Source: Thermoplasmatota archaeon (lineage in GTDB: Archaea > Thermoplasmatota > Penumbrarchaeia > Penumbrarchaeales > Penumbrarchaeaceae). From it: DNA of 21,152 bases. This document shows positions 1,934 through 20,600 of the stretch, piece by piece (position 1 is the first letter of the stretch; each line of letters begins with the position of its first letter). The DNA is taken from contig CBDDUX010000036.1 of assembly GCA_965234725.1 (NCBI GenBank), positions 1 through 21,152 on the forward strand. The letters run 5' to 3'. The notes beneath the pieces were generated by a model. It was not told the DNA's origin. It ran no database searches and saw nothing but the letters and a program-made list of their open reading frames with translations. A program made the position numbers and the translations under genes.

Positions 1934-1995
1934 GCGTTCACCTCTTAGGAATCAACAGGCAATATTCATATTACCCTAATGAATAGACCTGGATT

Positions 1996-2068
1996 AGATT
2001 AATCTCATCAATTTCCTTATAAGGATGTGTTGGGATGGTATTTCCTTATTATAATAATATTTCCATTA
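1996..2068. promoter_or_regulatory. AT-rich putative promoter/operator region upstream of the FG-GAP gene
   Basis: Perfect palindromes AGATTAATCT (1996-2005), TCCTTATAAGGA (2014-2025) and TTATTATAATAA (2046-2057); ATTTCCTTAT direct repeat at 2011 and 2040. Confidence 0.4.
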
Positions 2069-2076
2069 ATAAATCA

Positions 2077-2745: not shown

Positions 2746-2789
2746 CAGGTTCCCCAGGTATTGTCCATATGTTCGTGTCTGATATCAAA

Positions 2790-4112: not shown

Positions 4113-5365
4113 GAGATATCACCTCTTAGGGATTCCATGGGTGGTCTCCTGACAGTCCTTATAGCTGGTATCAAAGCTGAGATCATGGAGAGAAATAATG
4201 CTGCTAAAATGACCGAGAGAAGGATAATGGTGTCCACCCTAAAAAGGAGGAAACCTTCTGGAAGGGAACTGAATCTATTTTCAAGGAAGGTATTCAGTAC
4301 CAACATTGAGGATACACCGAGTAGTATTCCTGCAACAGATCCCAACATATAGAATAGTCCGGATTCCAACAATATCCACTTGAATATCTTGCTTGAGGGT
4401 ATCCCAATTGCTCTCAAAATAGCTGTATCCCTGGACCTTTCCTTTGCAGATATCATAAAGATCGCGGAAGTGAAGAAAAGACAAACTATCAAGGTCATTC
4501 CTATCACCATTATTGCAAAACCATCTATGATCAAAAGGAAATCCTGTATCTCTTCGAGGACCTCTTCCTTAGGGACAATGTCTACAATATCTTTGAAAGA
4601 GAAATCATCGGTCCTTGACCATCTGACAAGGTCCGAAGTACTCGTATGATCATCATAACCCAGTACTATTTCGGAAAGGGTATCCTTTTCAAGAAGTCCT
4701 TTGAGATATTGAAGTTCACCAAGATGGATCAATGCAGAGCGTGATAATCTTGAAAGAGTATCGATATAGGACCCTACCACACGGAAATTGAATGTTATAT
4801 TATTCTTCAGGGAAGGCGTCAAGTATATGGTATCTCCCACTTTTATCTTTAGGGAATTCAGGAATCTTTCGGAAAGCAGGATTTCCAAGGTCATGGATGT
4901 TTCTTTTACAGATCCAGTTTCGATAAATTCTTCTCTGATAGGGTCTCCACCTGTCTGGAACCAGTTCCCATCAACCAATCTGAATTGTTGGAAACCGGAT
5001 TCGAGAGAAGGCTCGATACCCATTACCTGTACCTCTCCTATGGTTTCATCGGTTTCAAAGAAAAGTGCATCCGATAATCTGGGAGATGTTCTGTCCGGTT
5101 TATTGGGAGCCCCATCCAATTCTCTTTGCACAGACCAACCTTGATCGAATCTCTGAAGATCAGTCAATAGGGGATGAAGGTCCTCAGGCACAACATAAAG
5201 GTCCACCCCTATCTCTTCGATCGACCTTCTAGAACTCGAACGGACACCCATGGAAAGACCTGAAAGTATCATGACCATGGCAATGGACGCTGTTATGGCC
5301 ATGATAATGATCGATGTCCTTAATGGATACCTCCTTGGATCAGATAAAAAGAGCACACGGGACAT
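4109..5365 (-). CDS. ABC transporter permease, FtsX/MacB/LolC-E type
   Basis: N-terminal RRYPLRTSIII plus TM1, large extracytoplasmic domain (VMGIEP, IKVGDTI, FRVVG), and C-terminal KERSRDTAILRAIG motif within three TMs. Confidence 0.93.
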   Translation of the reverse strand: MSRVLFLSDPRRYPLRTSIIIMAITASIAMVMILSGLSMGVRSSSRRSIEEIGVDLYVVPEDLHPLLTDLQRFDQGWSVQRELDGAPNKPDRTSPRLSDALFFETDETIGEVQVMGIEPSLESGFQQFRLVDGNWFQTGGDPIREEFIETGSVKETSMTLEILLSERFLNSLKIKVGDTIYLTPSLKNNITFNFRVVGSYIDTLSRLSRSALIHLGELQYLKGLLEKDTLSEIVLGYDDHTSTSDLVRWSRTDDFSFKDIVDIVPKEEVLEEIQDFLLIIDGFAIMVIGMTLIVCLFFTSAIFMISAKERSRDTAILRAIGIPSSKIFKWILLESGLFYMLGSVAGILLGVSSMLVLNTFLENRFSSLPEGFLLFRVDTIILLSVILAALFLSMISALIPAIRTVRRPPMESLRGDIS

Positions 5366-5391
5366 ATAACGGATAATATTATAAGTTTTGA

Positions 5392-5432
5392 GAAAATGAA
5401 AAAAAATAAAAAAAAAAGTAGAGAGAAAAAAA
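5392..5432 (-). terminator. Oligo-T archaeal terminator of the MoxR operon
   Basis: Several T7-T10 tracts on the minus strand immediately after the stop codon at 5435. Confidence 0.7.
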
Positions 5433-5434
5433 GC

Positions 5435-6427
5435 CTAATAATTCGGCTTTGTATTTCTCTCTACCTTTCTTCTCATCGCATCTTCCTCTTCGGCCTCTTT
5501 CCTATTCTTGAACTCCATCCAAAGGATCAGAACGATCCAGAGAGGGACAAAGATCAATGCCAATGTGAACACCACAGAGTATACGGAGTTCATCATCATG
5601 GAATTGGCCATCTGTTCGCTGAGATATGGTGTGATCCATCTGAAGAAGAAATTGATCACCAGAACGAGTTGGAATCCGAACCCGATTATTACCATAAGGA
5701 TGAAACCCATGATATAATAACTGTTAATGACCGGGGTCAAACTGAACTCACCTGATGCCTTCTCCTTGGCATACTTTATGATATCGTTGAACCTGTGAGC
5801 ACCATTATGAAGCTCCAGCATAAAGAGGAAGGACATGGCGAACAGGTACATAATCTCCCATCCTCCCCAGGTCAATTCCTCGATATCAAGAAGAGCATTG
5901 TTATTGAATCCTACCATGGAGATCCCGATTATTGTCGAGATTATCCCTACCGCATAAAGGGTAGTTGGTAGATCCTGGCTCATCCAGTTCATTATCTTCA
6001 GCGATGTTAGGAAGTTGGAGGCCATTAGACCTCCAGTTATAAGGACCGCCAGCACGATATAGAGAACAACGAACCATACCATGCTGGAATCAGAATATAC
6101 CTCCCATCCCTTATAGAGAATGGGAGAACCGAAAATAACGATCCACATCCAGGTAACGATACCCGTTATCGGGATCCTTGTCGTTCTAATCGGGTTCCAA
6201 CGTGTTACGAACTGGGATCCAAGTAGGAAAAGGCCCCCTGCAATATACATGATAGGACCGTAGGCCCCACCAAAATCCCAACCCACGGCAAGTCCCATGA
6301 ATACGAAGGACAGCAACCAGAACAAAGTCCCAAGTGCCCACATGATTATGGTCTCGCCTGCTTGCAGACCAATCTCGAAAGGCACGAGGTTTTCCAAATC
6401 ATCTCGGTATTCTGCCACTTTCCTCAC
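5435..6427 (-). CDS. Polytopic membrane protein of unknown function (last gene of MoxR operon)
   Basis: 330 aa with about 8-9 hydrophobic segments and a charged C-terminal tail. GTG start lies 1 nt after the DUF58 stop. Confidence 0.85.
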   Translation of the reverse strand: MRKVAEYRDDLENLVPFEIGLQAGETIIMWALGTLFWLLSFVFMGLAVGWDFGGAYGPIMYIAGGLFLLGSQFVTRWNPIRTTRIPITGIVTWMWIVIFGSPILYKGWEVYSDSSMVWFVVLYIVLAVLITGGLMASNFLTSLKIMNWMSQDLPTTLYAVGIISTIIGISMVGFNNNALLDIEELTWGGWEIMYLFAMSFLFMLELHNGAHRFNDIIKYAKEKASGEFSLTPVINSYYIMGFILMVIIGFGFQLVLVINFFFRWITPYLSEQMANSMMMNSVYSVVFTLALIFVPLWIVLILWMEFKNRKEAEEEDAMRRKVERNTKPNY

Positions 6428-6428
6428 C

Positions 6429-7739
6429 TCAATAGTTCCTCGCCTCCATCAGGATCTGAGTCAATGGCGTTGCGGGTTTCCAATCAAGGACCTTAACACC
6501 ATAACCTCTCAGTTCCTGCATTAATATCTCCCTCTCCAGTCTGAGAATATCGTAGGCGGCCTGATTTATCTTCTCACCTTTCTTCTGTTTGGCCATTATC
6601 TCAAACTCTATCGAGTTGGGTGATATCATCGTCACATCGAACTCCAGCATCATCATCATTGCTACTGCCTTCCTAATGGAGTCATCCTCCTCAAGGTTGG
6701 TAATTACAATGACAGGTGACTGCCTTGGCATATAGGGAATTGCCACTTCAACAATACCTGCGAGTGGAATATCTCCCTTGGCCTCTGCACCAGCCAGAGC
6801 GGTCAGGAGCTCGAAGAGCTGCTTTTGTCCAGTTCCCTTCTTTATCGTAAGCACTTTATCGGAATACACCACCATCTGGACTGAATCCCTCCTTTTCAGG
6901 AAGAAATTCGCCAGTGTTGCAGCGGCCCTTGCTCCGTATAAATTGGCATTATCCGAATCCATTCCATACCTTGAAGCTGTCCTGGAATCGAATAATATAG
7001 TGATATCGGAAACAGAGAGCCTTTCATGTTCATTGACCAGAAGCTTTCCAGTGGATGCATAGGCCTTCCAGTTGATATCTCTGAAAGGATCTCCCGGCAT
7101 GTAGTCCCTGATCGCAAAGAACTCAGAACCAGGACCTGGCATCTTGACCCTCATCTCCCCGGGATACATCTTGGGCTGTTTTGATTTGATATACAGCTCC
7201 TTGACATCCCTAACCTGCGGGAACACCGTCAGGTCGGATTCGAAGGCCACGGTCTTCTCCTTGTAGAACATGTTCAAGGGGTCATGTGTCCTCAGGGTGA
7301 TCGGGCCTACACTGTAGACCCCTTTGAGGGGACATTTGATGGTGTATTTGAGCCTGGTAGCTCCCTTGGGATTCAGATTCAGATAGGTATAGTTTGTACC
7401 CTCCTTCAACTGAATCGTACGGGGGAGTTTATCCCTAACTTCCAGGAAGCCTGTTTTACCTCCCTGGTTAAGGATCCTAAGCTCCACCTTCACTGTTCCA
7501 TCCTCAAAGATCTTCTCCTGGGACATCTCCCTGTCCGCCGTCAACCTGGTTGAGGTATTGGCGAACACGCTGACAGTGGTGTAGACGAGACCCGCTATGG
7601 CTATCATCACCAGTAAGAGATTACGGGTGGCCAAGCCTAGCAATGTCGCTATTATTGACATGCTCACGATGGAAGCTGCTTTTTTCGTCCACATATTCAC
7701 ACCACTTTCTTTTGGTCCATGGAAGGGTTCCATGGACAT
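6429..7739 (-). CDS. DUF58 domain protein (MoxR-associated, vWA-like) with N-terminal TM hairpin
   Basis: Motif GSEFFAIRDYMPGDPFRDINWKAYA..GKLLVNEHE, an Ig-like segment (KGVYSVGP..DPLNMF..LTVFP), and two N-terminal TMs. Confidence 0.93.
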   Translation of the reverse strand: MSMEPFHGPKESGVNMWTKKAASIVSMSIIATLLGLATRNLLLVMIAIAGLVYTTVSVFANTSTRLTADREMSQEKIFEDGTVKVELRILNQGGKTGFLEVRDKLPRTIQLKEGTNYTYLNLNPKGATRLKYTIKCPLKGVYSVGPITLRTHDPLNMFYKEKTVAFESDLTVFPQVRDVKELYIKSKQPKMYPGEMRVKMPGPGSEFFAIRDYMPGDPFRDINWKAYASTGKLLVNEHERLSVSDITILFDSRTASRYGMDSDNANLYGARAAATLANFFLKRRDSVQMVVYSDKVLTIKKGTGQKQLFELLTALAGAEAKGDIPLAGIVEVAIPYMPRQSPVIVITNLEEDDSIRKAVAMMMMLEFDVTMISPNSIEFEIMAKQKKGEKINQAAYDILRLEREILMQELRGYGVKVLDWKPATPLTQILMEARNY

Positions 7740-7752
7740 ACTCTACCTAGGA

Positions 7753-8850
7753 TCAGACCGCAGGTACAGGTACCTCAGCCAGAATCTTGTTGATGATATC
7801 CTGGGCCAGCACACCGCGGATCCTCGGTTCAGGTTTGAGAATTATTCTGTGTGCCAGTGAAGGCATCGCAACAGCCTTTATGTCATCTGGTGTTATGTAA
7901 TCCCTTCCCTGAAGGACAGCCCTTGCTCTTGATAGTTTGAAAAGAGCAAGTGAACCTCTGGGTGAAGCACCTACTACCACCCTTGGGTCCTCTCTTGTCC
8001 TGTATACGATCTCCACAATGTAGGTGAGGAGAGCAGGGTCCATATGGACCTTCTCCACAACCTGCTGCATGGCTATGATCTTCTCGGGAGAGGTTATGGT
8101 GTTGATATCTACCGCGTCCTTACCCCTTCTCATCCTACGGATAAGGATCTCCCTCTCGTCCTCTCTTGAAGGATAACCCATTGACATCTTCTGCATGAAC
8201 CTATCGACCTGAGCCTCAGGAAGCGGATATGTTCCTTCCTGTTCGATCGGGTTCTGGGTTGCCATCACAAGGAAAGGCTTTGGCAACCTGTGGGTTACAC
8301 CCTCAATGGACACCTGCCTCTCCTGCATAGCCTCCAACATGGCGGCTTGTGTCTTGGGAGGTGCCCTATTTATCTCGTCAGCCAGGATGATATTCGCAAA
8401 TATCGGTCCAGGTCTGAACTTGAACTCATTATCCTTCTCATCGAAGATATAGGTCCCAGTGATATCAGTGGGTAGCAGATCAGGCGTGAACTGTATACGC
8501 CTGTATTTGCATCCCAGAGCGTCAGCAAAGGTCATAACCATTAGAGACTTTGCTGTTCCCGGGAAATCCTCGAAGAGGATATGGCCGTCTGCCAGGATCG
8601 AAAGCAGAACATGCTCTAACACGTTTCTTTTTCCGATAATGGCCTTTTCTACCTCAGCTATGAGGGCTATCGAGGTTGCCGAAACTCCCTTGATTGCTCT
8701 TTGCACTTCCGGGGATGTCCCGGTGCCCTTCTTTGGGGCTGGTGCGCCCGCGGGGGGAGCTGCCATTGGGGCAGCCCCAGGTCTCGGGGGTAGCTGCTGA
8801 GGGGGCGCTCCCGGCGCCCTCGGTGCTGGTTGGGTTCCATCCGGTGTCAT
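7753..8850 (-). CDS. moxR: MoxR-family AAA+ ATPase with Pro/Ala-rich N-terminal extension
   Basis: GHILFEDFPGTAKS (Walker A), RIQFTPDLLPTDITG, LADEINRAPPKTQAAMLEAMQE, ATQNPIEQEGTYPLPEAQVDRF, GASPRG. SD AGGTGA upstream. Confidence 0.97.
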   Translation of the reverse strand: MTPDGTQPAPRAPGAPPQQLPPRPGAAPMAAPPAGAPAPKKGTGTSPEVQRAIKGVSATSIALIAEVEKAIIGKRNVLEHVLLSILADGHILFEDFPGTAKSLMVMTFADALGCKYRRIQFTPDLLPTDITGTYIFDEKDNEFKFRPGPIFANIILADEINRAPPKTQAAMLEAMQERQVSIEGVTHRLPKPFLVMATQNPIEQEGTYPLPEAQVDRFMQKMSMGYPSREDEREILIRRMRRGKDAVDINTITSPEKIIAMQQVVEKVHMDPALLTYIVEIVYRTREDPRVVVGASPRGSLALFKLSRARAVLQGRDYITPDDIKAVAMPSLAHRIILKPEPRIRGVLAQDIINKILAEVPVPAV

Positions 8851-8885
8851 TTCTCATCACCTTTTTTGTTTAATTCCATCCTTGA

Positions 8886-10970
8886 TCATATATTCTGGAT
8901 CTTCTTGATCTTCTCCATCAATCTGGAGATCTCCTGGCTAGAATAGATACGCTCCTGATTCTGAAGCAACTCTATAAGGTCAGGATCTTTAACACTGCTC
9001 ATAATGGTCCGTTCATTTAGAGAGGAGAATTCTTCTGGACTTAAACCTCGTATCAATCTAACCTTCTCTCTAAGGGCAAGACGTAATTTCGTAGTTTGAA
9101 GCTTGTTGTCGTTTGGAAGGGTTTTCCTCGGAACAAGCAGACTAATATCGAACTGATGAACCCAGCTCTCCTTGTCCTTGATAAGCAAAGCTGCAAACAT
9201 CAAAAGGAATCCGATAGAAATCACAATGGGATAGGCATAATACGGACTTGATGTCAGGAATCCGGTCACCTGCATTGTTCTGTAAACCGGTTTTAAAAGA
9301 TGGTTTTCAACGGAATGCCTGGATTCATCGATCAGTATAAGATTCGTCTCACCAGAATCAGCTGGAGAAAGATGATGGATAAGATCCAACAGGAAGTTCT
9401 TATTGTCATAATCGAGTTTTGGTTCACCCCTCATATCATCGGTGAGCCAATCGAAGGTGTCCACCTCTCTATCGGACCAGTAGTCAGGTGAATTATCAGC
9501 AACATTGTTCTTATCATCCTGGTCTTCTTTTGAGATATCTCCCGTCTCTCTCAATATCTCCCTGTCCTCATCGATCAATCCATCTCCGTCATCATCTTCG
9601 CCATTTCCTTCCGGATCGAATGGAAGGTTTACATCATACCTGATATGGTTAAGCATGTAGAGATCGTTCATGAATACTGATGGGTCTGAGATGAAAACGA
9701 TCGAACCCAGCTCGGTGATCAACTTATCGGACTCTGGATTGAGCTCCCTTACCTTGTATTTCTTGGGTTCGCCATCCGCATCTTTGATCGATTCAGAAGA
9801 TTCTCCGGTTACGATATCCACTGCTCCGGTACCGTCATCTGCAACAGGTATCTCAACGCAGAACTGAATCTCATTACCTACGGAGGATACCTCATCTGCA
9901 TTCTTACCTTCAAGATCTCCGCTGGGGATCGAAAGTATACCATTGTCATCCATGTCAATAAAGGATTTTGAGGACCCGGCAGCCCAGATCCATGGTCTAA
10001 CAGATGATGAAAGGCCTGTCGGTTTGTATGTTATGAGTTCGTATGACTGGAGATCCTCATCTATTATCTCATCTCCATCATTGTCGATTCCATCAATCCA
10101 TTCGATATCAACATTCTTGTGACCTTTCCAGAGTATCTCTGCGTCACCTCTGGGCCTGAAAACAAGATCGTCGTCAATGGGATCTTCATCAATACCTTCA
10201 TTTTCCTCATCGACTATCTCATCGTTATCATTATCCCTTAGGTCACCATCCAATCTGGAATTATCCCTGTCATCATCATAGTTCTTAGATGAACCAGTGC
10301 TATCATCCTCATCTATCCTACCATCTGCATCCTGATCATCATCCCAGACACCATCACCGTAAGGATCGGAGAGAGACCAGACTTTAACTCCGTCAACGTT
10401 GTAGATATCGCTGCCCATGTGGCCCTGAACGATAGTATAATTCGCATTCCGATCGAATCTTTCGTCGTAGAATTGACCTCCGAAGAAGGTTACACCATAT
10501 TCCTTGGCGATCTGGTTTGCATTCCCGAAATCGTCAGCGATAATGGCATGGCCACCCCTGGCAAGGAAGGAATTGAGTGCTCTTATCTCTTCCTGAGTAT
10601 ATTCTCTCTCGATCCCTATACCTAAATATATCGTGTCCTTGGGATCGATAAGGTCCCCAAGTAGGATGGTTGGAGTTGAAACAATAGAACGTACCTTATA
10701 ATCGTACACACCATCATTCTCTCCCCCTCCAGTATAGAAAATGGACCCACGAACATGACTATTATATCTTTCCACATCCTTGACGAATTCGCTGATATCA
10801 CTGTATCCATCCTCAAAGGCCGAGAACTTTGGATCAGCCTCAATAACTCCCGCTGTAGTCATGATCAGTGACCCGAGAGGATATATGATGAATATCAGCC
10901 CCATTAGTACTGCTATACCAATGGCGATTGCCTCGTTCCATTTCATAGGTATGACTTCCCCCTGTTTCAA
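8886..10970 (-). CDS. DUF4350-like membrane-anchored protein with acidic Ca-binding repeat insertions
   Basis: Core motifs YTQEEIRALNSFLARGGHAIIADDFGNANQI, GSIVFISDPSVFMND, DNKNFL and LIDESRH, with N- and C-terminal TMs. Start is TTG 10970 (TTGA overlap with upstream stop) or ATG 10946. Confidence 0.85.
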   Translation of the reverse strand: MKQGEVIPMKWNEAIAIGIAVLMGLIFIIYPLGSLIMTTAGVIEADPKFSAFEDGYSDISEFVKDVERYNSHVRGSIFYTGGGENDGVYDYKVRSIVSTPTILLGDLIDPKDTIYLGIGIEREYTQEEIRALNSFLARGGHAIIADDFGNANQIAKEYGVTFFGGQFYDERFDRNANYTIVQGHMGSDIYNVDGVKVWSLSDPYGDGVWDDDQDADGRIDEDDSTGSSKNYDDDRDNSRLDGDLRDNDNDEIVDEENEGIDEDPIDDDLVFRPRGDAEILWKGHKNVDIEWIDGIDNDGDEIIDEDLQSYELITYKPTGLSSSVRPWIWAAGSSKSFIDMDDNGILSIPSGDLEGKNADEVSSVGNEIQFCVEIPVADDGTGAVDIVTGESSESIKDADGEPKKYKVRELNPESDKLITELGSIVFISDPSVFMNDLYMLNHIRYDVNLPFDPEGNGEDDDGDGLIDEDREILRETGDISKEDQDDKNNVADNSPDYWSDREVDTFDWLTDDMRGEPKLDYDNKNFLLDLIHHLSPADSGETNLILIDESRHSVENHLLKPVYRTMQVTGFLTSSPYYAYPIVISIGFLLMFAALLIKDKESWVHQFDISLLVPRKTLPNDNKLQTTKLRLALREKVRLIRGLSPEEFSSLNERTIMSSVKDPDLIELLQNQERIYSSQEISRLMEKIKKIQNI

Positions 10971-13900
10971 CCATTAGGTCCGACGATCTCGGTCTCTACT
11001 ACATCCTCATCAGCAAGCTCCATCTGCCTGAGTGCGGCTTCCTCGTCGAGTATTATGCTATCAAGCGAGGTTTCCACCTGCCTCAAACATCCAATAGCCT
11101 TCTGTTTATGATTCTCTCCTATAACGTGCTTTGAATACCTGGCTTCTTCAAGGATATCCAAGAATGCATCCAGGCTCCTTTCATCAATGGGTAGGGCGGT
11201 CCTGACAGCATCTTCGAACTCCCTGAATGTGTCAGCATCACGCCTCATGAAGCCGTATCTTCTCAGATGAGCTCCAAGTTTCTGATATGCTTTGAAGATG
11301 ATATAGGAATAGGGATTTCCAGCTTCAAGTTGATCAGCTGCTTTCTTGATGATCTTCTTGAGTGATTTCAATCTTCTCTTCCTCTCAATGTATCTGTAGA
11401 AGAAGAAGAGGCCGATACCTCCAAGGATCAATACGACAAGAATAATGAATATGATCAAAGCTACCGGTGCAGGGGTTGGAGGTTCAGGCACATACCGATG
11501 GTAGGTACCTATCCTTGTCTTCGAGCTTGATGTGAAACCCTGTTTTCCAACGAACTTAACTTCAATTGAGATGTTCGAAGAATCCTGGTCAGCAGGAAGT
11601 GTGAAGAAATTACCTGTTGCCGTGTCCCTGAGCTTGGACGTGAAGTTGAAATGGACCCTTCCTCTAATATCAGAAATTGCTCTGGTAGTATTGACATATG
11701 GCCCCATGCTGATATTGAGCCAGACCACTCCGAATGTTACCGGTTCTCCACCGATATCAGATGTGCCTTCCAGAACCTGGAATGTGAAGACCAGATTATC
11801 TACCTTGTTCTCGTAAATATCGAATCTCCCATCGGGTATCTTGTCCTCGTCCTTGGGTCCGAAGTAGATCTCCTTTACCCTGGTAGAGGACCAAACCTCG
11901 GCAACGGTCCTATTTACAGATGGTTGATAGAGTGCTACACCTTCTGAACTTATTTCCGGTTCGAATTCAACAAGAACCTCTACATTTCCAACTTCCAGTT
12001 CTGAAACAACATTTGGAGTTTTTATCTCGAAGAAACCGTCAAACTCCGGAAGGTTCGGGTCCTTCTTGGTCCTACCGGTTCCTAGTTTGAATATCTCCTC
12101 ACCCTGTTTGAGATATGCAGTGACCGTTTGGCCTCCCACACCTCTGTTAACTGTTTTCCCTCTATACATCTCAAGTAATTTTCCAGTGATCCTAGCCTCT
12201 GCGTTCCTTACAAGAACGTTAGGAACCTGGTCCAATTCGACCACTGTCTCTGAGGTGATTATCATCTTTGTTGGATATGCGACCATATCCATGTAGGCAT
12301 CGTTGGGAAGATATCTGATCCCACCAAGACCGTATGGGAACTGTTGTGAACCATCGAATTTTGCAACTATCCAAACGGATCCAACAGACATGATCTCCTC
12401 GATGATATGATCATTGAATGTGAACTTCCCGATTGAGTTTGTTACAGCGGTTCCAATAGGTGTTCCAAGACCACCGCTGACCTTCAAGGAATTGTAATTT
12501 CCTCCCCAGGTCTCCAGTCTATACAGCTTGATTGTCCTGTTCCCGATACCAACCTGTCTGTCATCCTTTAGGTATCCGGAAACACTGATCGGTTTTCCTT
12601 TGATGGCAATGCTGGCATTGACTTCCAATGTCGTAAATGAAACAACCGAGAATGGTTGCCCATCATTGTCCACCATGGTAGATGAGTCGTAATAGTTTGT
12701 GAAATATTCTGTGCTGAATGTGACCCTAAGTGGTACTGGACCCAGAGCATGGTTGGCAGCAATGGGAATATCCTTCTCGAACCTGCCGTTTGAATCTGTT
12801 CTCAGTTCAAAGGTCTTCTGCCATGTCTTTCCGAATCCCCAGTAGAGGGTGATCTCTTGATTTGGTACACCAAGGACTATTGCTCCCGTTGATTGTGACA
12901 TATCCTTGAGAACACCTCTAATCCTTGCCACGTTCCAATCGTAAACCTTACCATCCGCACCTACGAACTCCTTCCGTGTAATGAAAGTGATAAGTGGTTC
13001 CCCATTGGGGCCTACCTCCTTTTCATCATTGACAGAATTCTTGTTCTGGTCCATCCAGAGGTCCAACTCCGTTGTAGACCTGACAATGAATGTCGTGGAA
13101 TTGTCGGAATTTGTATAGAACACCTTATCGTCCTGGTATGGATTATCGTCGAAATTGGTAGTAACTGTAACATCCACCGGACCTAAGGGTTGTGAACCTG
13201 CAGGTAATTCATATTGGAGCGAGAACGTTCCATTATCATCGGTGATGAACTGTCCCGACCAGATCTTGTAGAACGGCTGAATGGAATTGCCCCATTCAAC
13301 ATTGAACCTGTATTTGGTCCCGTAATCGTATCCTCCAATTTGGAGCCTGGGACCTTCTACCTGTTTCTTATCGTAATAAAGCTTGTCAACTATGGATCCA
13401 TTAATAAAAATGGTCGATCCCCTATAGACCCAGGTAACTCCATAGTTCGGATCAATATTATCGAAAAGTACAGTTGTAGGTCTCCTAACATAGATGGTGG
13501 TGGTCGCATTGCTGGGATCGAAATAATCATTATTTGTCTGGTTGAAACCAGGGCTGAATTCAACAGTGATCTTGTGTGGGCCTGCTGTTGCATCCCATGG
13601 CACCGTTTTTGTGAACTCGAAATTCGAGAAGTAACCAGATGTCGATGGCCTTGCCTCTGCATCAAACAGAGGTTGCCCGTCCCAGAACAACCTCATGGTT
13701 TTCCTCCCCATTTGGGTCTCTTCAAAGGAGATATCTGAGATCTGACCTTCTATGGTGAACTCCTCTCCAACATCCACTACTGCATGGGAGGGCTCAATAC
13801 CGGTGATAATGGTCTTTGTCTTGTGCCAGATTTCAACACCAAGCCTCTTCTCGAAACCCTTCCTTGCAATGAATGCATAGGGATCTTCATCGATGTATCC

Positions 13901-16114
13901 ATCGTTGTCATCATCGATCCCGTTCAGGATCTCCTCATCCACACCTTCGGGGTTCCCAATCTTGGTTATTCCGGGATATCCGTCATCGATAACACCGTCA
14001 TTATCATCGTCCAATCCGTTCCTCCATAGAGTTGATGGTTCTGGAGTACCAACAGGAAGTATCTTAGGACGACCGTCATCAATGCCCTCATCGATACCCT
14101 CATCGACCATACCATTCCCGTCGTTATCAATACCATCAGAGATCGCTGTGTCAAGGTCAATCCAATCCACATCAACATCGATATCGTAACCGATCCTGAC
14201 ATCGTAACCATTGGTGTTGTCCCAGACAAGTGAATAAGTTCCTGAAGCCGGTAGGGAAAAGGTACCCGTTCCATTGGAGGTATCAGTTGATATCCAGGTA
14301 GTGGATGTCCCATCGAAATATCCAAAATCTAATGGATGTTCACCGTTAGCATACCATGAATATGATATGTCGGATTCTCCCCTGTTTCCAATGTTCAGGA
14401 AATATCCAACACCTGATACAACACTCATACCTGTATCCATGAGATCCGGCCTGTCGATCGCTATCTGATAGGAGAAATTGGCCGTATCAGTAGCGTTATT
14501 GCTCTTCCATGATAGGATATAGGTATCGGCAGTGGTTATTGCAATGGAACCCGTGGCAGATGCCTGGTCTGTAACATACTGGGTAGGGGTCATTGATCCT
14601 CTCTGAAGAGACATGTTGAAGGTGCTGTAGAATGGTGTAGTCCAGTTGTTCTCTGCCCAGTTATAGGTGATCGAAGCTCCTGCTGGTAAATTCCCAAGGT
14701 ACACACTATTGGTGCCAAGGGGTGATATGTCCCAGAAGTATTCTGTCTGCTGGTCAGTGATCTGGATCTCATAGGAAAGACTGCAAACCTCGGTGCTAGA
14801 ACTGACAAATTGGAAGGAATAATTTCCGAATCCAGATATTACGTACTGACCTGATGCACCATATGAACCTGAAAGGAATGTATCAGGTGTTACCCCATCT
14901 GTGACCACAAGGGCAAAATTATCTGTCCTGTTAACACTGAAATCATAATCTATCACAGTTCCATTTGCAAGGGAACCAAGGTCAAGAGTTCTTGTGGCAC
15001 CTGGTTGAATTGTCGTTCCAGTTACCATATAATGGGATTCATACCTATCATTTCCAATCTCCTCTCCGATCTGGTATATTCCATCATTGTTCTTGGAGTT
15101 GCTACCATCATGGTAGGAATCAGGACTCATAGCTTCTCCATCACCATCGTTGTCGAGGAAATCAGCAATTCCATGAGGGGTCTGGATCCACCCTCCAGTA
15201 TTCATGTCTGTACCAACATCTTCCCCGGGTTGATAAATGGTGTCCGCTGCGAAACCGTTGGACCCATCCAGGAAAGAGTTGGGAGAAAACGGTTCGCCAT
15301 CTCCGTCATCATCCAGGTAATTGTTCTGTTTCTCCTGGGAATCACCATCATCATCATAACCGATTTTCTTGTTATATAGTACATTGAAAACCTCTTGTGT
15401 AAGATTGTAGAACCTTGCTCCATCAGTGGTCCATACTCCCTTATACGTAAGAACCAGTTCCACAGGATTCGCTGCAGTGGTGGAGATGTTTGCATACATC
15501 TGTATTTGATCGGTCTGATTTCCATTCTCATCATAGTTCCACAGGAAGTTGGAAGGCATCGAGAACCTGCCTGGTGTATAGTTAAGTTCTTGATTATCCC
15601 ATTCCGTCATCAGGTCCGCTTCGAATGCCCATTCGGTTCCGTCGGCCCAAAGCAGGGATACGAACTCCTTCATAACAGGAAGATCACCGGAGTTCCTTTC
15701 CCCGTCGGAGTTGTTATCCTCAAGCAGAAGACCATCAAGTTCCAGTTTATCGCCATAATGGACCTGCTTGGGTGCTTTTAGAATATATATAAGGGTCGAT
15801 GTGTTGGTCGCTCCCCTGGAAGGATCTGCATCGACTGGATCATATGGCCATGGTCGTCCCTCATCGATATCCCGGAAGACCATGATCGGGGATGCTGTAG
15901 GATCGATACTGAAGTCCTCGGATACAGTGTAACCTTCAGGAATATCAATATCGCTGTCTTGATCGGTTGGAAGACCCTTATCAATATCAGATATCAGGGT
16001 GTCCCTTTCATCAGCCATTTCCCCCGCAGTGGAAACTATCATAGACTCCACTGCGACGACAAAAGAAGCGGCTAACATGGTAAGCAATACGAGCGTTACA
16101 AGGCTCTTTCTCAT
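10967..16114 (-). CDS. Giant single-pass surface protein: signal peptide, about 7 Ig-like repeats, Ca-binding repeats, 3 GOLD-like domains, TM and cytoplasmic DUF4129
   Basis: ATG 16114 (MRKSLVTLVLLTMLAASFVVA) with SD GGAGGT at 16125-16120. Pro linker PEPPTPAP, then TM and basic stop-transfer RKRR. C-terminal YQKL..LRRYGFMR.DADTFREF..LEEARYS matches the DUF4129 pattern. Confidence 0.88.
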   Translation of the reverse strand: MRKSLVTLVLLTMLAASFVVAVESMIVSTAGEMADERDTLISDIDKGLPTDQDSDIDIPEGYTVSEDFSIDPTASPIMVFRDIDEGRPWPYDPVDADPSRGATNTSTLIYILKAPKQVHYGDKLELDGLLLEDNNSDGERNSGDLPVMKEFVSLLWADGTEWAFEADLMTEWDNQELNYTPGRFSMPSNFLWNYDENGNQTDQIQMYANISTTAANPVELVLTYKGVWTTDGARFYNLTQEVFNVLYNKKIGYDDDGDSQEKQNNYLDDDGDGEPFSPNSFLDGSNGFAADTIYQPGEDVGTDMNTGGWIQTPHGIADFLDNDGDGEAMSPDSYHDGSNSKNNDGIYQIGEEIGNDRYESHYMVTGTTIQPGATRTLDLGSLANGTVIDYDFSVNRTDNFALVVTDGVTPDTFLSGSYGASGQYVISGFGNYSFQFVSSSTEVCSLSYEIQITDQQTEYFWDISPLGTNSVYLGNLPAGASITYNWAENNWTTPFYSTFNMSLQRGSMTPTQYVTDQASATGSIAITTADTYILSWKSNNATDTANFSYQIAIDRPDLMDTGMSVVSGVGYFLNIGNRGESDISYSWYANGEHPLDFGYFDGTSTTWISTDTSNGTGTFSLPASGTYSLVWDNTNGYDVRIGYDIDVDVDWIDLDTAISDGIDNDGNGMVDEGIDEGIDDGRPKILPVGTPEPSTLWRNGLDDDNDGVIDDGYPGITKIGNPEGVDEEILNGIDDDNDGYIDEDPYAFIARKGFEKRLGVEIWHKTKTIITGIEPSHAVVDVGEEFTIEGQISDISFEETQMGRKTMRLFWDGQPLFDAEARPSTSGYFSNFEFTKTVPWDATAGPHKITVEFSPGFNQTNNDYFDPSNATTTIYVRRPTTVLFDNIDPNYGVTWVYRGSTIFINGSIVDKLYYDKKQVEGPRLQIGGYDYGTKYRFNVEWGNSIQPFYKIWSGQFITDDNGTFSLQYELPAGSQPLGPVDVTVTTNFDDNPYQDDKVFYTNSDNSTTFIVRSTTELDLWMDQNKNSVNDEKEVGPNGEPLITFITRKEFVGADGKVYDWNVARIRGVLKDMSQSTGAIVLGVPNQEITLYWGFGKTWQKTFELRTDSNGRFEKDIPIAANHALGPVPLRVTFSTEYFTNYYDSSTMVDNDGQPFSVVSFTTLEVNASIAIKGKPISVSGYLKDDRQVGIGNRTIKLYRLETWGGNYNSLKVSGGLGTPIGTAVTNSIGKFTFNDHIIEEIMSVGSVWIVAKFDGSQQFPYGLGGIRYLPNDAYMDMVAYPTKMIITSETVVELDQVPNVLVRNAEARITGKLLEMYRGKTVNRGVGGQTVTAYLKQGEEIFKLGTGRTKKDPNLPEFDGFFEIKTPNVVSELEVGNVEVLVEFEPEISSEGVALYQPSVNRTVAEVWSSTRVKEIYFGPKDEDKIPDGRFDIYENKVDNLVFTFQVLEGTSDIGGEPVTFGVVWLNISMGPYVNTTRAISDIRGRVHFNFTSKLRDTATGNFFTLPADQDSSNISIEVKFVGKQGFTSSSKTRIGTYHRYVPEPPTPAPVALIIFIILVVLILGGIGLFFFYRYIERKRRLKSLKKIIKKAADQLEAGNPYSYIIFKAYQKLGAHLRRYGFMRRDADTFREFEDAVRTALPIDERSLDAFLDILEEARYSKHVIGENHKQKAIGCLRQVETSLDSIILDEEAALRQMELADEDVVETEIVGPNG

Positions 16115-16130
16115 GGTATACCTCCAATGC

Positions 16131-16314
16131 TCCAACCTATCTGGATGATAGCATGATAGGATGGTTCCTCACAGGGAGTGGGCGGGATTGTAGCCCCTAA
16201 CACCCGCTCCGTATTTTAACCTTTGTGTGTTTGCCAGACACTGGATTATCACTTGTCTGGACAACCTTCCTTCGATGCTTATCAGTCCCGAATTATTGGA
16301 TTGACTGATGCGAA
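16131..16314 (-). other. Putative structured 5' leader with four consecutive hairpins
   Basis: Inverted repeats at 16281-87/16303-09, 16234-40/16254-60, 16175-84/16201-10 and 16136-41/16155-60, lying between the TATA box and the RBS. Confidence 0.5.
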
Positions 16315-16418: not shown

Positions 16419-18002
16419 TCAGGTAAATGGGACTCCATTATAGCTCTTTGGAACAGGTATGCCCATTTGTTTGAGGATCGTTGGAGCGACATCTGCAAGA
16501 GTTCCAATTCCATCTCTTAATATCATATCCTTGGTGACACGGCTGCCTATATGGATAAGAAAAACTGGATTTGTTGTATGTGCAGTAAATGGGATCCCCT
16601 TTTCTTCGTTCCACATCTTCTCTGAGTTGCCATGGTCTGCGGTAACGAGGAGTTGATAGCCATTCTCAATAGCAATTCTTACTACTGGTCCAAGGCACTT
16701 ATCAACTGTCTCTATCGCTCTCACAGCTGCATCCATTACCCCTGTATGACCCACCATATCAGGATTTGCAAAATTCACGATCCCGAATTCGAAAGAGCGA
16801 ATTGAGAGCTCCTTTATCAATCGATCCTTTATCTCCTCCGCTGACATCTCAGGTTGAAGGTCATAGGTAGGTACTTTGGGTGATGGGACAAGGATCCTCT
16901 TCTCACCGATGAAAGGTTCTTCACGACCTCCGCTGAAGAAAAAGGTCACATGAGCATATTTTTCCGTTTCTGCTATCCGAAGTTGGTTCAGGCCTCCCCG
17001 GGAGATCACATCGCCTAATGACAATTTGATCCTCGCTTCAGGAAACGCTACATGAGTGAATACGGAATCATCATAGTCGGTCATTGCAACAAAATGCGGT
17101 TTGACGACCTTTGGTCTGACGAATCCGTCGAAGAACGGGTAAATGAAAGCTTTGGTTATCTGTCTGGCTCTATCTGGTCTGAAATTGAAGAACACCAATG
17201 TATCATCATTATTCACCAGTCCAATTGGTTCCCCCTTTCCATTGACCATCTGAGCTGGACGAATAAATTCGTCTGTCTCACCTCTTCCATAGGATTCTAA
17301 GATCGCTTGTTCCGGGTCCAAGAAGGTATTCTCTTTTGGGATCACATAGTATTGGAAAGCCTCCCTGGTCCGATCCCATCTCCGATCCCTATCCATGGCA
17401 AAGAAACGTCCCATCAACGTGGCGATCTTGATTCTTCCTCCCGGATCCATTTCCACCAAACGTTGTTTCATTTCCCTGATATCTTCCAGGCCCGAATCCG
17501 GTGGTACGTCACGACCATCGGTGATGACATGAAGCCTTATCCTTTCAAGACCATTGTCCAGTGCCATTTTCATAAGTGCGTATAAATGATCGATGTGAGA
17601 ATGAACTCCCCCGTGCGAGGTCAGGCCAAGCAGATGTAAGGTCCCTCCCTTACTTTTACATAATTCCATTCCCTCTAATATCTTCTTATTCTTGAAAAAC
17701 GATCCATCCTTGATCTTGTTCGATATCTTGACAAGCGGTTGATGAATTACCCTTCCCGCTCCCAAGGTTAGATGGCCAACCTCGCTATTGCCCATTTGTC
17801 CTTCTGGAAGACCCACGAACTCACCTGAGGCTTCGATCAATCTCCAGGGATACTTCTCCAATAGATCATCGAAAACAGGAGTATCTCCCTTCTTTACAGC
17901 GTTGTACTCCACCTCGTCCGAATGGCCCCAACCATCTAGTACAACAAGTAGAAGTCTATCTGTAAGTGGAGCCTTTGTCATGGAATTTACCAATATGGTC
18001 AT
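16419..18002 (-). CDS. gpmI: 2,3-bisphosphoglycerate-independent phosphoglycerate mutase (bacterial-type iPGM)
   Basis: LVVLDGWG, GLPEGQMGNSEVGH (phospho-Ser), GGVHSH, DGRD, GRFFAMDRD, FNFRPDRARQ, AETEKYAHVTFFF, NFANPDMVGHTG, TADHGN, HTTNPV. Confidence 0.98.
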   Translation of the reverse strand: MTILVNSMTKAPLTDRLLLVVLDGWGHSDEVEYNAVKKGDTPVFDDLLEKYPWRLIEASGEFVGLPEGQMGNSEVGHLTLGAGRVIHQPLVKISNKIKDGSFFKNKKILEGMELCKSKGGTLHLLGLTSHGGVHSHIDHLYALMKMALDNGLERIRLHVITDGRDVPPDSGLEDIREMKQRLVEMDPGGRIKIATLMGRFFAMDRDRRWDRTREAFQYYVIPKENTFLDPEQAILESYGRGETDEFIRPAQMVNGKGEPIGLVNNDDTLVFFNFRPDRARQITKAFIYPFFDGFVRPKVVKPHFVAMTDYDDSVFTHVAFPEARIKLSLGDVISRGGLNQLRIAETEKYAHVTFFFSGGREEPFIGEKRILVPSPKVPTYDLQPEMSAEEIKDRLIKELSIRSFEFGIVNFANPDMVGHTGVMDAAVRAIETVDKCLGPVVRIAIENGYQLLVTADHGNSEKMWNEEKGIPFTAHTTNPVFLIHIGSRVTKDMILRDGIGTLADVAPTILKQMGIPVPKSYNGVPFT

Positions 18003-18039: not shown

Positions 18040-18843
18040 TCAAACCAATTGGACCATAAGCAAAAAGATCGGGATCGAACAGAGAGCGCCTAAACCAATG
18101 GTAACGAAATTTACGGTGTTATTTGTCAGAAGTCCCTTCTTTTGAAGGGTTGCGCCAAGGAGACTATCCAGCTGACATCCGAGCCAACCTATCCCGGTAA
18201 CCAGGATCACCGGGATGATGCCTGCGGAGAGCGTATGGGGAAACCAGGTAATAATAAGATCAGATACGAAAAGGATCCCAAAGAGTGAAATGATCAAAGC
18301 ACCAATGAACGCAGCCGTATTTCCCAGAAATGATACACCTCCATCGACCCCTGGTTTGACCTTTGTCCGAGGTGAAGTTATCATTCTGGGTACATCAGAA
18401 AGGATCCCTATTTCGCTCCCAAAGGTGTCTGCGGTTGCAATTGCGATGGCCGAAATAAACATGAATCCTGAAAGGCCGTCGGCAACCGAATCCAATGGTT
18501 CTGCAAGCAAAGCTATGATAAGGGGTACTATCCCATTTGCAAGGACATTCTTAACACCCCTTTCACCACCTTTACCTTCTGAGATGCCCCTTTCCCTCTT
18601 GTAATTATATCTCCAGACCGTCACAATGTAGGATACTATAAGGAAAAAGAGGAGAAGGAAGAACCAGAAAAGGTCAGTATAGAGGATGATGATCAGTCCG
18701 ATCAAAGAAGCAAGGATCGAAGCTCTGGAATCTAGTACCTTTTTTGAATATGCATAGAAACCTAGCATAGCACATAAGGTAAAGGATATGAGCAGAATGA
18801 CCCTGTCCACATCCGGAACCAGCCAAAGAGCTACGTCGGACAT
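18040..18843 (-). CDS. DUF92/TMEM19-family integral membrane protein
   Basis: RGVKNVLANG, ADTFGSEIG, PGVDGGVSFLG, DSLLGATLQ and NNTVNF motifs. ATG 18843 is preferred over 18909 because it avoids overlap with the divergent gene and follows a TATA-like box. Confidence 0.92.
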   Translation of the reverse strand: MSDVALWLVPDVDRVILLISFTLCAMLGFYAYSKKVLDSRASILASLIGLIIILYTDLFWFFLLLFFLIVSYIVTVWRYNYKRERGISEGKGGERGVKNVLANGIVPLIIALLAEPLDSVADGLSGFMFISAIAIATADTFGSEIGILSDVPRMITSPRTKVKPGVDGGVSFLGNTAAFIGALIISLFGILFVSDLIITWFPHTLSAGIIPVILVTGIGWLGCQLDSLLGATLQKKGLLTNNTVNFVTIGLGALCSIPIFLLMVQLV

Positions 18844-18927
18844 CCCGGGTAGAAAGGGATTGTTTATTAATTGTTTTCTGAAGAATGACCCTTGCAGGTT
18901 ATTTATCATGGATGCCTATTCACATAT
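18844..18927. promoter_or_regulatory. Compact divergent promoter region (likely two leaderless transcripts)
   Basis: Minus strand: CAGAAAACAATTAATAAAC about 20-27 nt before ATG 18843. Plus strand: TTATTTAT about 22-29 nt before GTG 18928. Neither start has an SD. Confidence 0.45.
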
Positions 18928-19560
18928 GTGGACGATGAAGAGGACACCTTTTCATTCCAGAAAAAATTGGAAGGTGTCAAAACATTTGATTTCGGCGGTT
19001 CAGCCGAGGTGAAAAGGGCCGAGGGAGCCGACTGGATAGAACCTTCGTTGGATGCGAAAGTGTTCGATCTTGAAAAAGTGACAGGAACCGTTAAGGTCCA
19101 AGGATTCGAACTTGATGAACCCACCCCTCCTGATGAAGATGCCGTGGAAAAGGCCCTGAAAAGATCCGACCCGAATGCTGATTACAAACGTAATAGCCAG
19201 GACTTTGGAATTATTTGCCCTATCTGTTTCGGAAAGGGGAAATGCGTCGAATGCAGGGGTACTGGACGCAGAAGATTGATATTGAAATGCAAGAACTGTG
19301 GTGGTTCAGGAAAATGCCCCGAATGTGAAAGGGATATCGAGGTCAGGTGTCCTCAATGCAGCGAGCCGATCTCAAAGTTCTCAGACACCTGTAAGAAATG
19401 CGGTCTGACCCTCAAATGTCATAATTGTGGGTCCAACCTTCCTGCAATGGCAACCAGATGTCCATCATGCAAGACCGAGTTCAAATGCAATAATTGCAAG
19501 AAGGCCTTTCCCACTCATTTTTCTTTAAGGTGTCCCCATTGCAACCATTGGAATGGATGA
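18928..19560 (+). CDS. Multi-zinc-finger protein (DnaJ-like CxxCxGxG finger plus zinc ribbons)
   Basis: Ten CxxC motifs, including CPICFGKG, CVECRGTG and CKNCGGSG, after an acidic N-terminal half. GTG 18928 is the probable start (track gives TTG 18892). Confidence 0.85.
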   Translation: MDDEEDTFSFQKKLEGVKTFDFGGSAEVKRAEGADWIEPSLDAKVFDLEKVTGTVKVQGFELDEPTPPDEDAVEKALKRSDPNADYKRNSQDFGIICPICFGKGKCVECRGTGRRRLILKCKNCGGSGKCPECERDIEVRCPQCSEPISKFSDTCKKCGLTLKCHNCGSNLPAMATRCPSCKTEFKCNNCKKAFPTHFSLRCPHCNHWNG

Positions 19561-19651
19561 ATGAACAAAAACAAAAAACGATCGAAATAACCCCTGCGAT
19601 TGAAACCTATTAATAGAGGGTTTGTTTGTAGGGCCTCCAGGTGTATTATAT

Positions 19652-19882
19652 ATGGTAATGCCGCAAAACCTTCTTGAAAAAAGCCTAAATGAAGAGGTCG
19701 AGATCCTTTTGAAGGATGGTAGGTTGATCAGAGGGGATCTAACAGGATATGATGAATATATGAACATGGTCCTGGAAAGTGCCGAGGAAGAGAAGAGAGA
19801 GGAGAAGAAAAGGCTCGGGACCGTAATTCTCAGAGGAAACAATGTAGTTTCCATCACTCCTCTTAAAAGCCAAGCGGAATGA
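19652..19882 (+). CDS. Sm-like archaeal protein (SmAP/Lsm)
   Basis: Sm1 motif LKDGRLIRGDLTGYDEYMNMVL and Sm2 motif LGTVILRGNNV. SD AGGTG at 19639-19643 before ATG 19652. Confidence 0.95.
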   Translation: MVMPQNLLEKSLNEEVEILLKDGRLIRGDLTGYDEYMNMVLESAEEEKREEKKRLGTVILRGNNVVSITPLKSQAE

Positions 19883-20600
19883 TGGTGCAAACCACCGGTG
19901 TGATCCTGTTCTCAATACATTTGTCCACAACTTTCATCATATCACCCAATGTTTCATCAAATGGAGTCCCAAGCAGGGCGTCATTTGTTCCTCCCTGAAT
20001 TATGCAATGATCGGGGAAATGTATCACTACCTCATTATCGAAACGATTCAGGATACCATATAGAGTATTACCCGCTATCCCTCTATTTATGAAGGTCTTC
20101 CCTGTTTCCTTTGTCAACCAATAAGGAAATTGGTGTGGAGAATCCATATCAAGGTCAACAGGCCGACCGTTTCCAGAGATATCATTCCTTACCGGAAATC
20201 CCTGGGTATCTGAATCTCCAAGGCATACGACCACATCAAAATCATCAATGTCATCAAAATATTCCTTCATCAATACATCTGACAACCTTTTCTGTCCGTC
20301 AATGTTCAAGTGGGCATTATCTCCAATAGCATATACTGGATCGAGAATATCCTCTCCATCCCCTCGAGAGAAGAATTTGTATAGATCTACCACAGGAACC
20401 GATCGATTATTACATTCTTTCAGGATACTGGCGTTCATCCTCCTGATGAAAAGGGAGGTCTTCTCCCGGAAGGTTTCTGCGTCCACGATCCGTCTTTTTC
20501 CGGTATCGATCTCCATGTGATAGGTTATCTTCTCGATAATATTAATCCGTTGGGCCATATGTTTATTCCCAATGTCTGGAACCTTCGAATTTTTTTTCAT
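19863..20600 (-). CDS. SGNH/GDSL hydrolase, circularly permuted
   Basis: Block V (GDNAHLN) precedes block I (VVCLGDSDTQG), block II (NRGIAGN) and block III (IIQGGTND). SD GAGGAGG upstream. Confidence 0.85.
   Translation of the reverse strand: MKKNSKVPDIGNKHMAQRINIIEKITYHMEIDTGKRRIVDAETFREKTSLFIRRMNASILKECNNRSVPVVDLYKFFSRGDGEDILDPVYAIGDNAHLNIDGQKRLSDVLMKEYFDDIDDFDVVVCLGDSDTQGFPVRNDISGNGRPVDLDMDSPHQFPYWLTKETGKTFINRGIAGNTLYGILNRFDNEVVIHFPDHCIIQGGTNDALLGTPFDETLGDMMKVVDKCIENRITPVVCTIIPLGF

Follow-up and report, generated by a model that had tools for sequence, protein, structure and literature searches.

We find that a gene on the minus strand of a 21,152-nt stretch of DNA from a Thermoplasmatota archaeon (assembly GCA_965234725.1, contig CBDDUX010000036.1; this entire contig, from a genome of 3.5 Mb in 114 contigs, is referred to below as the window) very probably encodes a naturally circularly permuted SGNH/GDSL hydrolase. 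It belongs to a family conserved in Thermoplasmatota, and its product is predicted to be a 217-amino-acid (aa) cytoplasmic esterase or acyl-hydrolase with a Ser-His-Asp triad. The gene lies in an open reading frame (ORF) of 245 codons plus stop at 19863..20600, as delimited in an earlier note made from the sequence alone, which had proposed a permuted enzyme subfamily rather than a fragment.

Block order, catalytic residues and predicted fold

Canonical SGNH hydrolases follow the order beta1(I)-alpha1-beta2(II)-alpha2-beta3(III)-alpha3-beta4-alpha4-beta5(V)-alpha5, the Roman numerals denoting the conserved sequence blocks. The ORF reads ...VPVVDLY...GDNAHLNIDG...FDDIDDFD...VVVCLGDSDTQG...NRGIAGNT...QGGTND...TPVVCTIIPLGF-stop, i.e., V-I-II-III in place of the colinear I-II-III-V of the canonical GDSL architecture, and bears out the motif order first described for it (a helix and VPVVDLY, then GDSDTQG, NRGIAG, QGGTND and the stop). 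The two halves of the ORF (aa 1-121 and aa 122-245) were scanned one by one against Pfam with hidden Markov models (HMMs), a check suggested in the earlier note, and their hits fell in reversed order. The C-terminal half matched the starts of the profiles (Lipase_GDSL_2, positions 1-109 of 178, E 4.6e-12; Lipase_GDSL, positions 1-93 of 208) and the N-terminal half their ends (Lipase_GDSL, positions 120-206 of 208, E 9.3e-4; SGNH family, positions 186-247 of 248, E 0.014; Lipase_GDSL_2, positions 124-177 of 178, E 0.093). The curated cut-offs are passed for both PF13472 (57.0-57.5 bits vs 32.9) and PF00657 (42.8-43.6 vs 23.6), and Lipase_GDSL_2 and Lipase_GDSL are each matched by 22/22 family members. 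A scan of NCBIfam gave only a weak partial match to TesA (27 bits against a cut-off of 270), and ESM Atlas returned canonical GDSL clusters only.

The family profile recovered 82 chains from the PDB sequences at E<=1; the chains among the matches listed are all canonical SGNH proteins and align piecewise with the order reversed. For instance, in 9hi6_A profile positions 141-213 fall on chain residues 56-131 and positions 17-84 on residues 141-206 (whole-sequence E 6.6e-21), and 3p94_A aligns in the same manner. In these alignments the canonical chains run on past beta4 into the segment that is N-terminal in this protein. Both the half scans and the PDB alignments agree with the claim that the canonical C-terminal third now stands at the N-terminus and reaches beta1 through a short linker. 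Separate HMMs for the parts placed V before I-III in 31/31 permuted rows and I-III before V in 37/37 canonical rows. The reversed block order is confirmed and far above chance. The premise from which the permutation had been deduced, namely that SGNH hydrolases run I-II-III-V, overlooked the published permuted proteins AlgX/AlgJ, WssI and PatB1.

We compared the residues of the blocks in an alignment of the close family (A1, 20 rows) and in a wider one (A2, 22 rows, 24-94% identity). Invariant in both, in the numbering of the 245-aa ORF, are D94 and H97 of block V (here D94-N-A-H97), G128-D129-S130 of block I, G177 of block II and G203-G204-x-N206 of block III, in line with the statement that Ser, Gly, Asn and Asp/His are all retained in one ORF. 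Ser130 would serve as the nucleophile, activated by His97 and Asp94, and the oxyanion hole would be formed by the backbone amide of Ser130, by Asn206 and by Gly177, which we take to be the oxyanion Gly from the usual block II pattern of the family. An insert of ~28 residues between blocks I and II, in which P136, R138, N144 and P159 are invariant in A1, is kept in the close family and is shorter in distant members.

AlphaFold2, run for the 217-aa protein with the 22-row alignment, predicts both parts as a single compact domain (predicted local distance difference test, pLDDT, 92.5; predicted TM-score, pTM, 0.88), the outcome expected of an active permuted enzyme in the earlier note. The model comprises a helix at 13-37, a short strand at ~42-43, a helix at 72-85, a strand at 95-100, a helix at 130-138, a strand at 141-146, a helix at 152-162, a strand at 170-174, a helix at 186-202 and a strand at 206-210, after which the chain stops, as had been said of the strand following block III. 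This corresponds to alpha4-beta5-alpha5-beta1-alpha1-beta2-alpha2-beta3-alpha3-beta4, with all the canonical elements present and the cut placed after beta4. In the proposed scheme, the cut in the chain would lie in the loop that follows beta4, with a short acidic linker joining the former termini, giving alpha4-beta5-(V: Asp-x-x-His)-alpha5-linker-beta1-(I: Gly-Asp-Ser)-(II: Gly)-(III: Gly-x-Asn-Asp)-alpha3-beta4-stop. Since the protein of the ORF has a hydrophilic N-terminus and lacks both a signal peptide and a membrane anchor, its folding, presumably into one flavodoxin-like alpha/beta/alpha domain, would take place in the cytoplasm.

An alternative is that the protein keeps the fold for binding but does not catalyse, like the OSK domain of Oskar, or that a partner or dimerisation completes the active site. 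Pfam OSK is indeed matched by 20/22 members (best E 2.1e-9) and the triad geometry is a predicted one; however, the OSK match takes in no more than the SGNH core common to both and scores below the GDSL matches, the model is a confident monomeric domain, and selection for catalysis predicts just what is seen in A2, where Ser, Gly, Asn, Asp and His never vary although the 22 rows are so diverse. We therefore hold this alternative to be quite improbable.

Several observations weigh against a permuted, active hydrolase. The N-terminal half alone scores under the Pfam cut-offs. Sequential aligners cover about half of the model: Foldseek gives TMq values of 0.37-0.45 (best hit 4rsh_A, E 6.5e-8, TMq 0.43, 115 columns) and the VIA rows comprise mostly residues 84-217, such aligners being able to cover one side of a permuted model only. 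Directly after the nucleophile the window has GDSDTQG, as against GDSHTQG in all 19 other rows of A1; this Asp is probably tolerated because distant members in A2 carry Leu or Ile at that position. A search of relatives of 381-2000 aa found no closely related tandem intermediate, which is weak evidence, and six distant loci (with BacA, DUF211, PGM/PMM, MscS-Usp, DHH and DUF92) revealed no shared operon or consistent substrate clue. As to the Asp codon at 20208-20210, the related-strain contigs X2 and X3 have C>G at 20210, which restores His.

Conservation, genomic stability and origin of the permutation

Homologues of the same block order were found, as the earlier note had hoped. A protein collection clustered at 90% contains 37 colinear homologues (E 1e-135 to 7e-59), several of them named from Thermoplasmatota or Thermoplasmata metagenome-assembled genomes. 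Junction-crossing matches are present in 22/41 relatives' genomes (own genome counted) and, in an even sample of the phylum, in 26/301 genomes (own included) belonging to 7 families, with half matches only in 5 further genomes of that sample. On one-genome-per-species contigs, 11/80 confirmed loci are colinear and all of these are titled Thermoplasmatota, Thermoplasmatales or Thermoplasmata; each of the other loci matches just one half, their sources being Bathyarchaeota, Desulfosporosinus, Desulfitobacterium, Bacteroidales and similar taxa. Among 1.84 billion cluster representatives there are 28,533 profile matches at E<=1e-3, the best 150 of which include 12 single-stretch hits across the junction; 11 of these 12 were read and all 11 have the permuted order. 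The order is likewise retained in the genomes G026, G036, G039 and G040, at 24-33% identity. The 37 proteins, 26 genomes and 11 loci uphold the inference of a conserved permuted subfamily as opposed to a fragment. Two candidates were rejected: in the genome G010, from the window's own family, the only GDSL protein is a canonical one with a signal sequence, and the locus L053 (query 55-216), a would-be bacterial permuted member, has an ORF with a canonical GDSL domain in a 486-aa protein.

The junction near ~20250, where a chimeric joint had been feared, is crossed without joint or indel by Logan contigs from a different study, namely X2 (record 11; 19814-20561, 24 differences) and X3 (record 12; 19627-20431, 22 differences). 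A 5788-nt contig from the probable source run is identical to the window and is not independent. The location of the gene 552 bp from the contig end, where it adjoins an integrase fragment, and the unusual Asp after the nucleophile in the window's copy might point to an artefact or decay product, i.e., an assembly chimera or a functionless remnant of two tandem GDSL genes. However, a chimera is ruled out by the same arrangement in independent assemblies and studies, and the arrangement extends down to 24-33% identity with frames intact and catalytic residues invariant. Furthermore, synteny is kept among relatives, the integrase occurs in no genome but this one and starts upstream of the conserved gene, and a search of the own genome with this query at E<=10 found no second or tandem GDSL copy. 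The remnant reading is also not upheld given that permuted homologues do exist. The probability that we assign to an artefact or remnant is thus negligible.

Tandem duplication is the textbook intermediate of circular permutation. The permuted gene would likely have arisen from a canonical archaeal GDSL gene that was duplicated in tandem or fused and then lost both outer ends. The nearest canonical sequences are archaeal, namely P0093 (named from a Promethearchaeota archaeon), the P0050 cluster (named from a Euryarchaeota archaeon) and L030 (from Bathyarchaeota). The tandem GDSL-GDSL proteins P0051, P0071, P0081 (437 aa) and P0127 match the family profile across their inter-domain junction, where the end of domain 1 and the start of domain 2 yield the order V-I-II-III. 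They differ from the family in having complete canonical domains on both sides and signal peptides, and they are not close relatives (E 1e-25 to 1e-33 vs 1e-96 within the family). These proteins fit the part of natural examples of the expected intermediate, and with it a duplication-then-truncation route.

To place the permuted proteins among canonical ones, we used a tree of 68 rows and 201 columns from a quick IQ-TREE search, comprising 31 permuted rows, 35 canonical representatives (178-239 aa, picked from the upper part of the cluster-representative list) and 2 canonical locus ORFs; it took in no multi-domain proteins or fragments and none of the remaining canonical hits. On this tree the permuted label must change 3 times. 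The 18 permuted rows of the window's clade group with the canonical P0093 and P0097 (Shimodaira-Hasegawa-like approximate likelihood ratio test, SH-aLRT, 96), and the other 13 permuted rows fall elsewhere. By the approximately unbiased (AU) test, one clade of all permuted rows is not rejected (delta log-likelihood 0.69, p 0.49). Both one and several permutation events are possible, and permutation may have occurred more than once among these archaeal enzymes. Only tentatively do we suggest that this SGNH permutation originated independently of those in AlgX/AlgJ/WssI and PatB1, and recently enough for canonical motifs and canonical sister sequences to survive.

Start site, flanking sequence and gene neighbourhood

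The start of the 245-aa ORF and the ribosome-binding (Shine-Dalgarno) site of its own with which the ORF had been credited are both probably wrong. Homologues begin with M/V-E-I-[ND]-T-G, equivalent to Met29 of the ORF at nt 20516; they are mostly 216-220 aa long, with Met or Val as the first residue. The profile match in 18 same-family genomes spans 19866..20516, and the extension 20517..20600 is missing from the homologues in A1. The ATG at 20600 lies 2 nt past the stop of the neighbouring integrase ORF, and the GGAGGA before it comprises the final Glu codons of that ORF. Given these homologue starts and the coding role of GGAGGA in the integrase, the functional protein is most likely the 217-aa form starting at nt 20516, and the first 28 codons are probably non-coding. 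In the 92%-identical relative G004 one TAA is found somewhere within the match to the ORF, and the open frame begins just 14 codons ahead of Met29. Although the 70 nt upstream of Met29 vary between genera, relatives share an A/T-rich element of the ATTAAT type located ~20-30 nt ahead of the start; this could be a TATA-like promoter element serving a leaderless or short-leader mRNA.

Table 1. Positions of the features of the permuted gene and its flank in the window
Feature	Position	Strand	Basis
ORF of the earlier note, 245 aa + stop	19863..20600	-	ORF reading
Conserved coding region, 217 aa, Met29 (MEIDTG...) to ...IPLGF, likely the true protein	19866..20516	-	Homologue starts
28-codon 5' extension, probably non-coding promoter/leader	20517..20600	-	Not in homologues
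TATA-like ATTAATATTA, 21-30 nt before ATG 20516	20537-20546	-	Putative promoter role
Helix = canonical alpha4, FREKTSLFIRRMNASILKECNNR, now N-terminal	20403..20471	-	Model helix 13-37; aligns after canonical beta4
Strand = canonical beta5, VPVVDLY	20379..20399	-	PDB-profile alignment, model
Block V, GDNAHLNIDG	20295..20324	-	Asp, His invariant in A1 and A2
Asp94 (Asp66 in 217-aa numbering), predicted triad	20319-20321	-	Invariant
His97 (His69 in 217-aa numbering), predicted triad	20310-20312	-	Invariant
Acidic linker FDDIDDFD, old C-terminal helix to beta1 = new junction	20235..20258	-	Sequence varies among homologues
Block I, VVVCLGDSDTQG	20199..20234	-	G-D-S invariant; model strand 95-100
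Predicted nucleophile Ser130 (Ser102 in 217-aa numbering)	20211-20213	-	Invariant
Family-specific insert between blocks I and II, FPVRNDISGNGRPVDLDMDSPHQFPYWL, candidate substrate-binding loop	20115..20198	-	Putative function
Block II, FINRGIAGNT	20064..20093	-	Gly invariant
Gly177, oxyanion hole	20070-20072	-	Invariant; presumed oxyanion role
Block III, CIIQGGTND	19980..20006	-	G-G-x-N invariant
Asn206	19983-19985	-	Invariant
Last strand (canonical beta4), TPVVCTIIPLGF, then stop = new C-terminus	19866..19901	-	Model strand 206-210
Neighbour, not enzyme: tyrosine recombinase/integrase 3' part, cut at contig end	20603..21151	-	Pfam, NCBIfam

The integrase ORF matches Pfam Phage_integrase (E 3.2e-15) and is XerA-like in NCBIfam; the gene runs off the contig end and is found in this genome only. 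The sequence common to relatives stops at 20561/20562, with X2 and X3 having loose ends at 20561; related-strain contigs match the window up to 20561 and then diverge into upstream sequence like that of G004. In G004 a tRNA-Arg(GCG) is located ~90 bp upstream of the esterase gene (L002 2244-2320); the window itself is without a tRNA. The summed word depth in run X1 increases from 2155 to 3132-9036 past 20599, and because of this rise the data suggest a multi-copy mobile element integrated directly upstream of the esterase gene.

The order DUF92 (-), zinc-ribbon (+), LSm (+), esterase gene (-) is kept in 12/12 loci from 11 same-family relatives (one fetched twice). In the window, the block 18040-19882 encodes the DUF92 membrane protein (-), a 222-aa multi-zinc-ribbon protein (+) and LSm (+); DUF92 is also found near the permuted gene at the more distant loci L026 and L027. 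The 3' end of the esterase gene overlaps the convergent LSm (Sm-like) gene (19622..19882, +) by 20 nt (19863-19882), an overlap present in G004 (L002) and absent in G008 (L010). An aquatic metatranscriptome contig, X13 (317 nt, 19741-20051, 21 differences, ~93% identical), spans the 3' ends of both convergent genes of a relative; it shows neither the strand nor which gene was transcribed.

The closest relatives with a solved structure are uncharacterised ‘acylhydrolases’, TesA-type thioesterase/lysophospholipases and acetyl esterases. As a guess, the substrate may be an ester of acetyl or another short-chain acyl group, perhaps carried on a sugar or a lipid-linked glycan. Distant permuted members are found at L013, L014 and L099; in family f12 the permuted gene is immediately followed downstream by a gene for BacA (polyprenyl-diphosphate phosphatase family), and in family f13 it lies downstream of a PGM/PMM-family phosphomutase gene. 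These BacA and PGM/PMM adjacencies may indicate a link with glycan or lipid-carrier metabolism, and, taken with DUF92, the neighbours give a weak hint of sugar- or polyprenyl-phosphate-linked substrates.

Elsewhere in the window, a cofactor-independent phosphoglycerate mutase is encoded at 16419..18002. At 5435-16135 (-), a run of genes on one strand comprises an ORF of 1722 aa for which Pfam gives no match, genes for a DUF4350-like protein (694 aa), a MoxR-type AAA ATPase and a DUF58 protein, and a further ORF without a hit (330 aa); it resembles a MoxR-DUF58 system with a giant unknown partner. An FG-GAP repeat protein, truncated at the contig start, an ABC ATPase and two FtsX/MacB-type permeases are encoded, in this order, at 2-5365 (-).

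Comparison with known permuted and canonical SGNH proteins

Permutation of SGNH proteins is a phenomenon already known in bacteria, from which the archaeal family differs in its canonical motifs and lack of extra domains. Excerpts of published work describe AlgX and AlgJ, the alginate O-acetyltransferases (PMC9487903, PMC4148444), as circularly permuted SGNH hydrolase-like proteins of order H-S-G-x, and the same is published for the cellulose O-acetyltransferase WssI (PMC10302187). PatB1 of Bacillus cereus (DHHW family, 5V8E) is likewise assigned a permuted SGNH-like core (excerpts of PMC9487903 and PMC5697884), and a 2022 review includes both of these permuted families, AlgX and DHHW, in the SGNH superfamily (PMC9487903). 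Full-text literature searches, which did not cover subscription journals, found only AlgX/AlgJ, WssI and PatB1 as permuted SGNH proteins and no such archaeal family; PMC5408684, PMC2848206 and PMC3779223, considered as further sources on permuted SGNH proteins, concern other subjects. As these permutations are published, the novelty is smaller than the earlier note assumed.

The archaeal family shares the permuted order H-S-G-x with AlgX/AlgJ/WssI. According to the excerpts available (PMC9487903, PMC4148444, PMC10302187), the latter are extracytoplasmic bacterial transferases with the motifs GTSYS and DxH, Tyr or Asp replacing Asn, a cap domain plus a pair of long antiparallel strands, and a signal or anchor sequence, whereas the archaeal family has GDS, DxxH and Asn, and its 217-aa model has core helices and strands only, with a hydrophilic N-terminus. 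The spacing from His to Ser is 33 residues in the archaeal family as against ~96-102 in AlgX/AlgJ/WssI as given in those excerpts. An AlgX-type family is hit by 0/22 members and is not among the 13 Pfam families hit by any member at E<=1, nor among the families listed for P0001; AlgJ has 10% identity to the model in structural alignment. PatB1 resembles the family in its circularly permuted SGNH-like core with a Ser-His-Asp triad; excerpts of PMC9487903 describe it as a secondary cell wall polysaccharide O-acetyltransferase with KDS, DxRY and TDHHW blocks, an 8-stranded sheet and a beta-sandwich cap. None of these three blocks occurs in the 22 rows of A2, and no DHHW family is hit in Pfam by the 22 members. 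The canonical motifs, the Pfam matches in 22/22 members, the absence of AlgX or DHHW hits and of an extra domain, and the archaeal distribution together set the family apart as a separate permuted subfamily. That these proteins, permuted and catalytic, act as O-acyl or O-acetyl transferases on a glycan or lipid-linked sugar, in the manner of AlgX/AlgJ, WssI and PatB1, rather than as hydrolases, is in our estimate unlikely.

The permuted SGNH-like proteins in the literature are acetyltransferases that act outside the cytoplasm and have diverged strongly; the present family would be the first we could find there that combines a permuted order with fully canonical motifs and is minimal in size, archaeal and, as predicted, cytoplasmic. 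While it opens no new biological mechanism, natural permutations with clear canonical relatives are test cases for folding, for fold evolution by duplication and truncation, and for annotation, as linear HMMs label permuted proteins ‘GDSL-type esterase/lipase’ and see a partial domain only. With its canonical relatives, the family offers a clean pair in which the effect of topology on stability and catalysis can be compared. If the origin were independent, the family would offer a natural minimal model for re-threading of the alpha/beta hydrolase fold, with matched permuted and unpermuted pairs.

Closest to the family are the canonical small SGNH/GDSL hydrolases of the Lipase_GDSL_2 type, e.g., 4rsh (Desulfitobacterium hafniense) and E. 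coli TesA/TAP (1ivn), with the Bacteroidales ‘putative acylhydrolases’ 3p94/4iyj/4ppy/4hf7 as further solved examples. Unlike in these, alpha4, beta5, block V and alpha5 here precede block I, the chain stops after beta4, a ~28-residue insert separates blocks I and II, and a signal peptide is absent. On account of its V-I-II-III order, we therefore file the family not with canonical GDSL but as a permuted subfamily of the superfamily.
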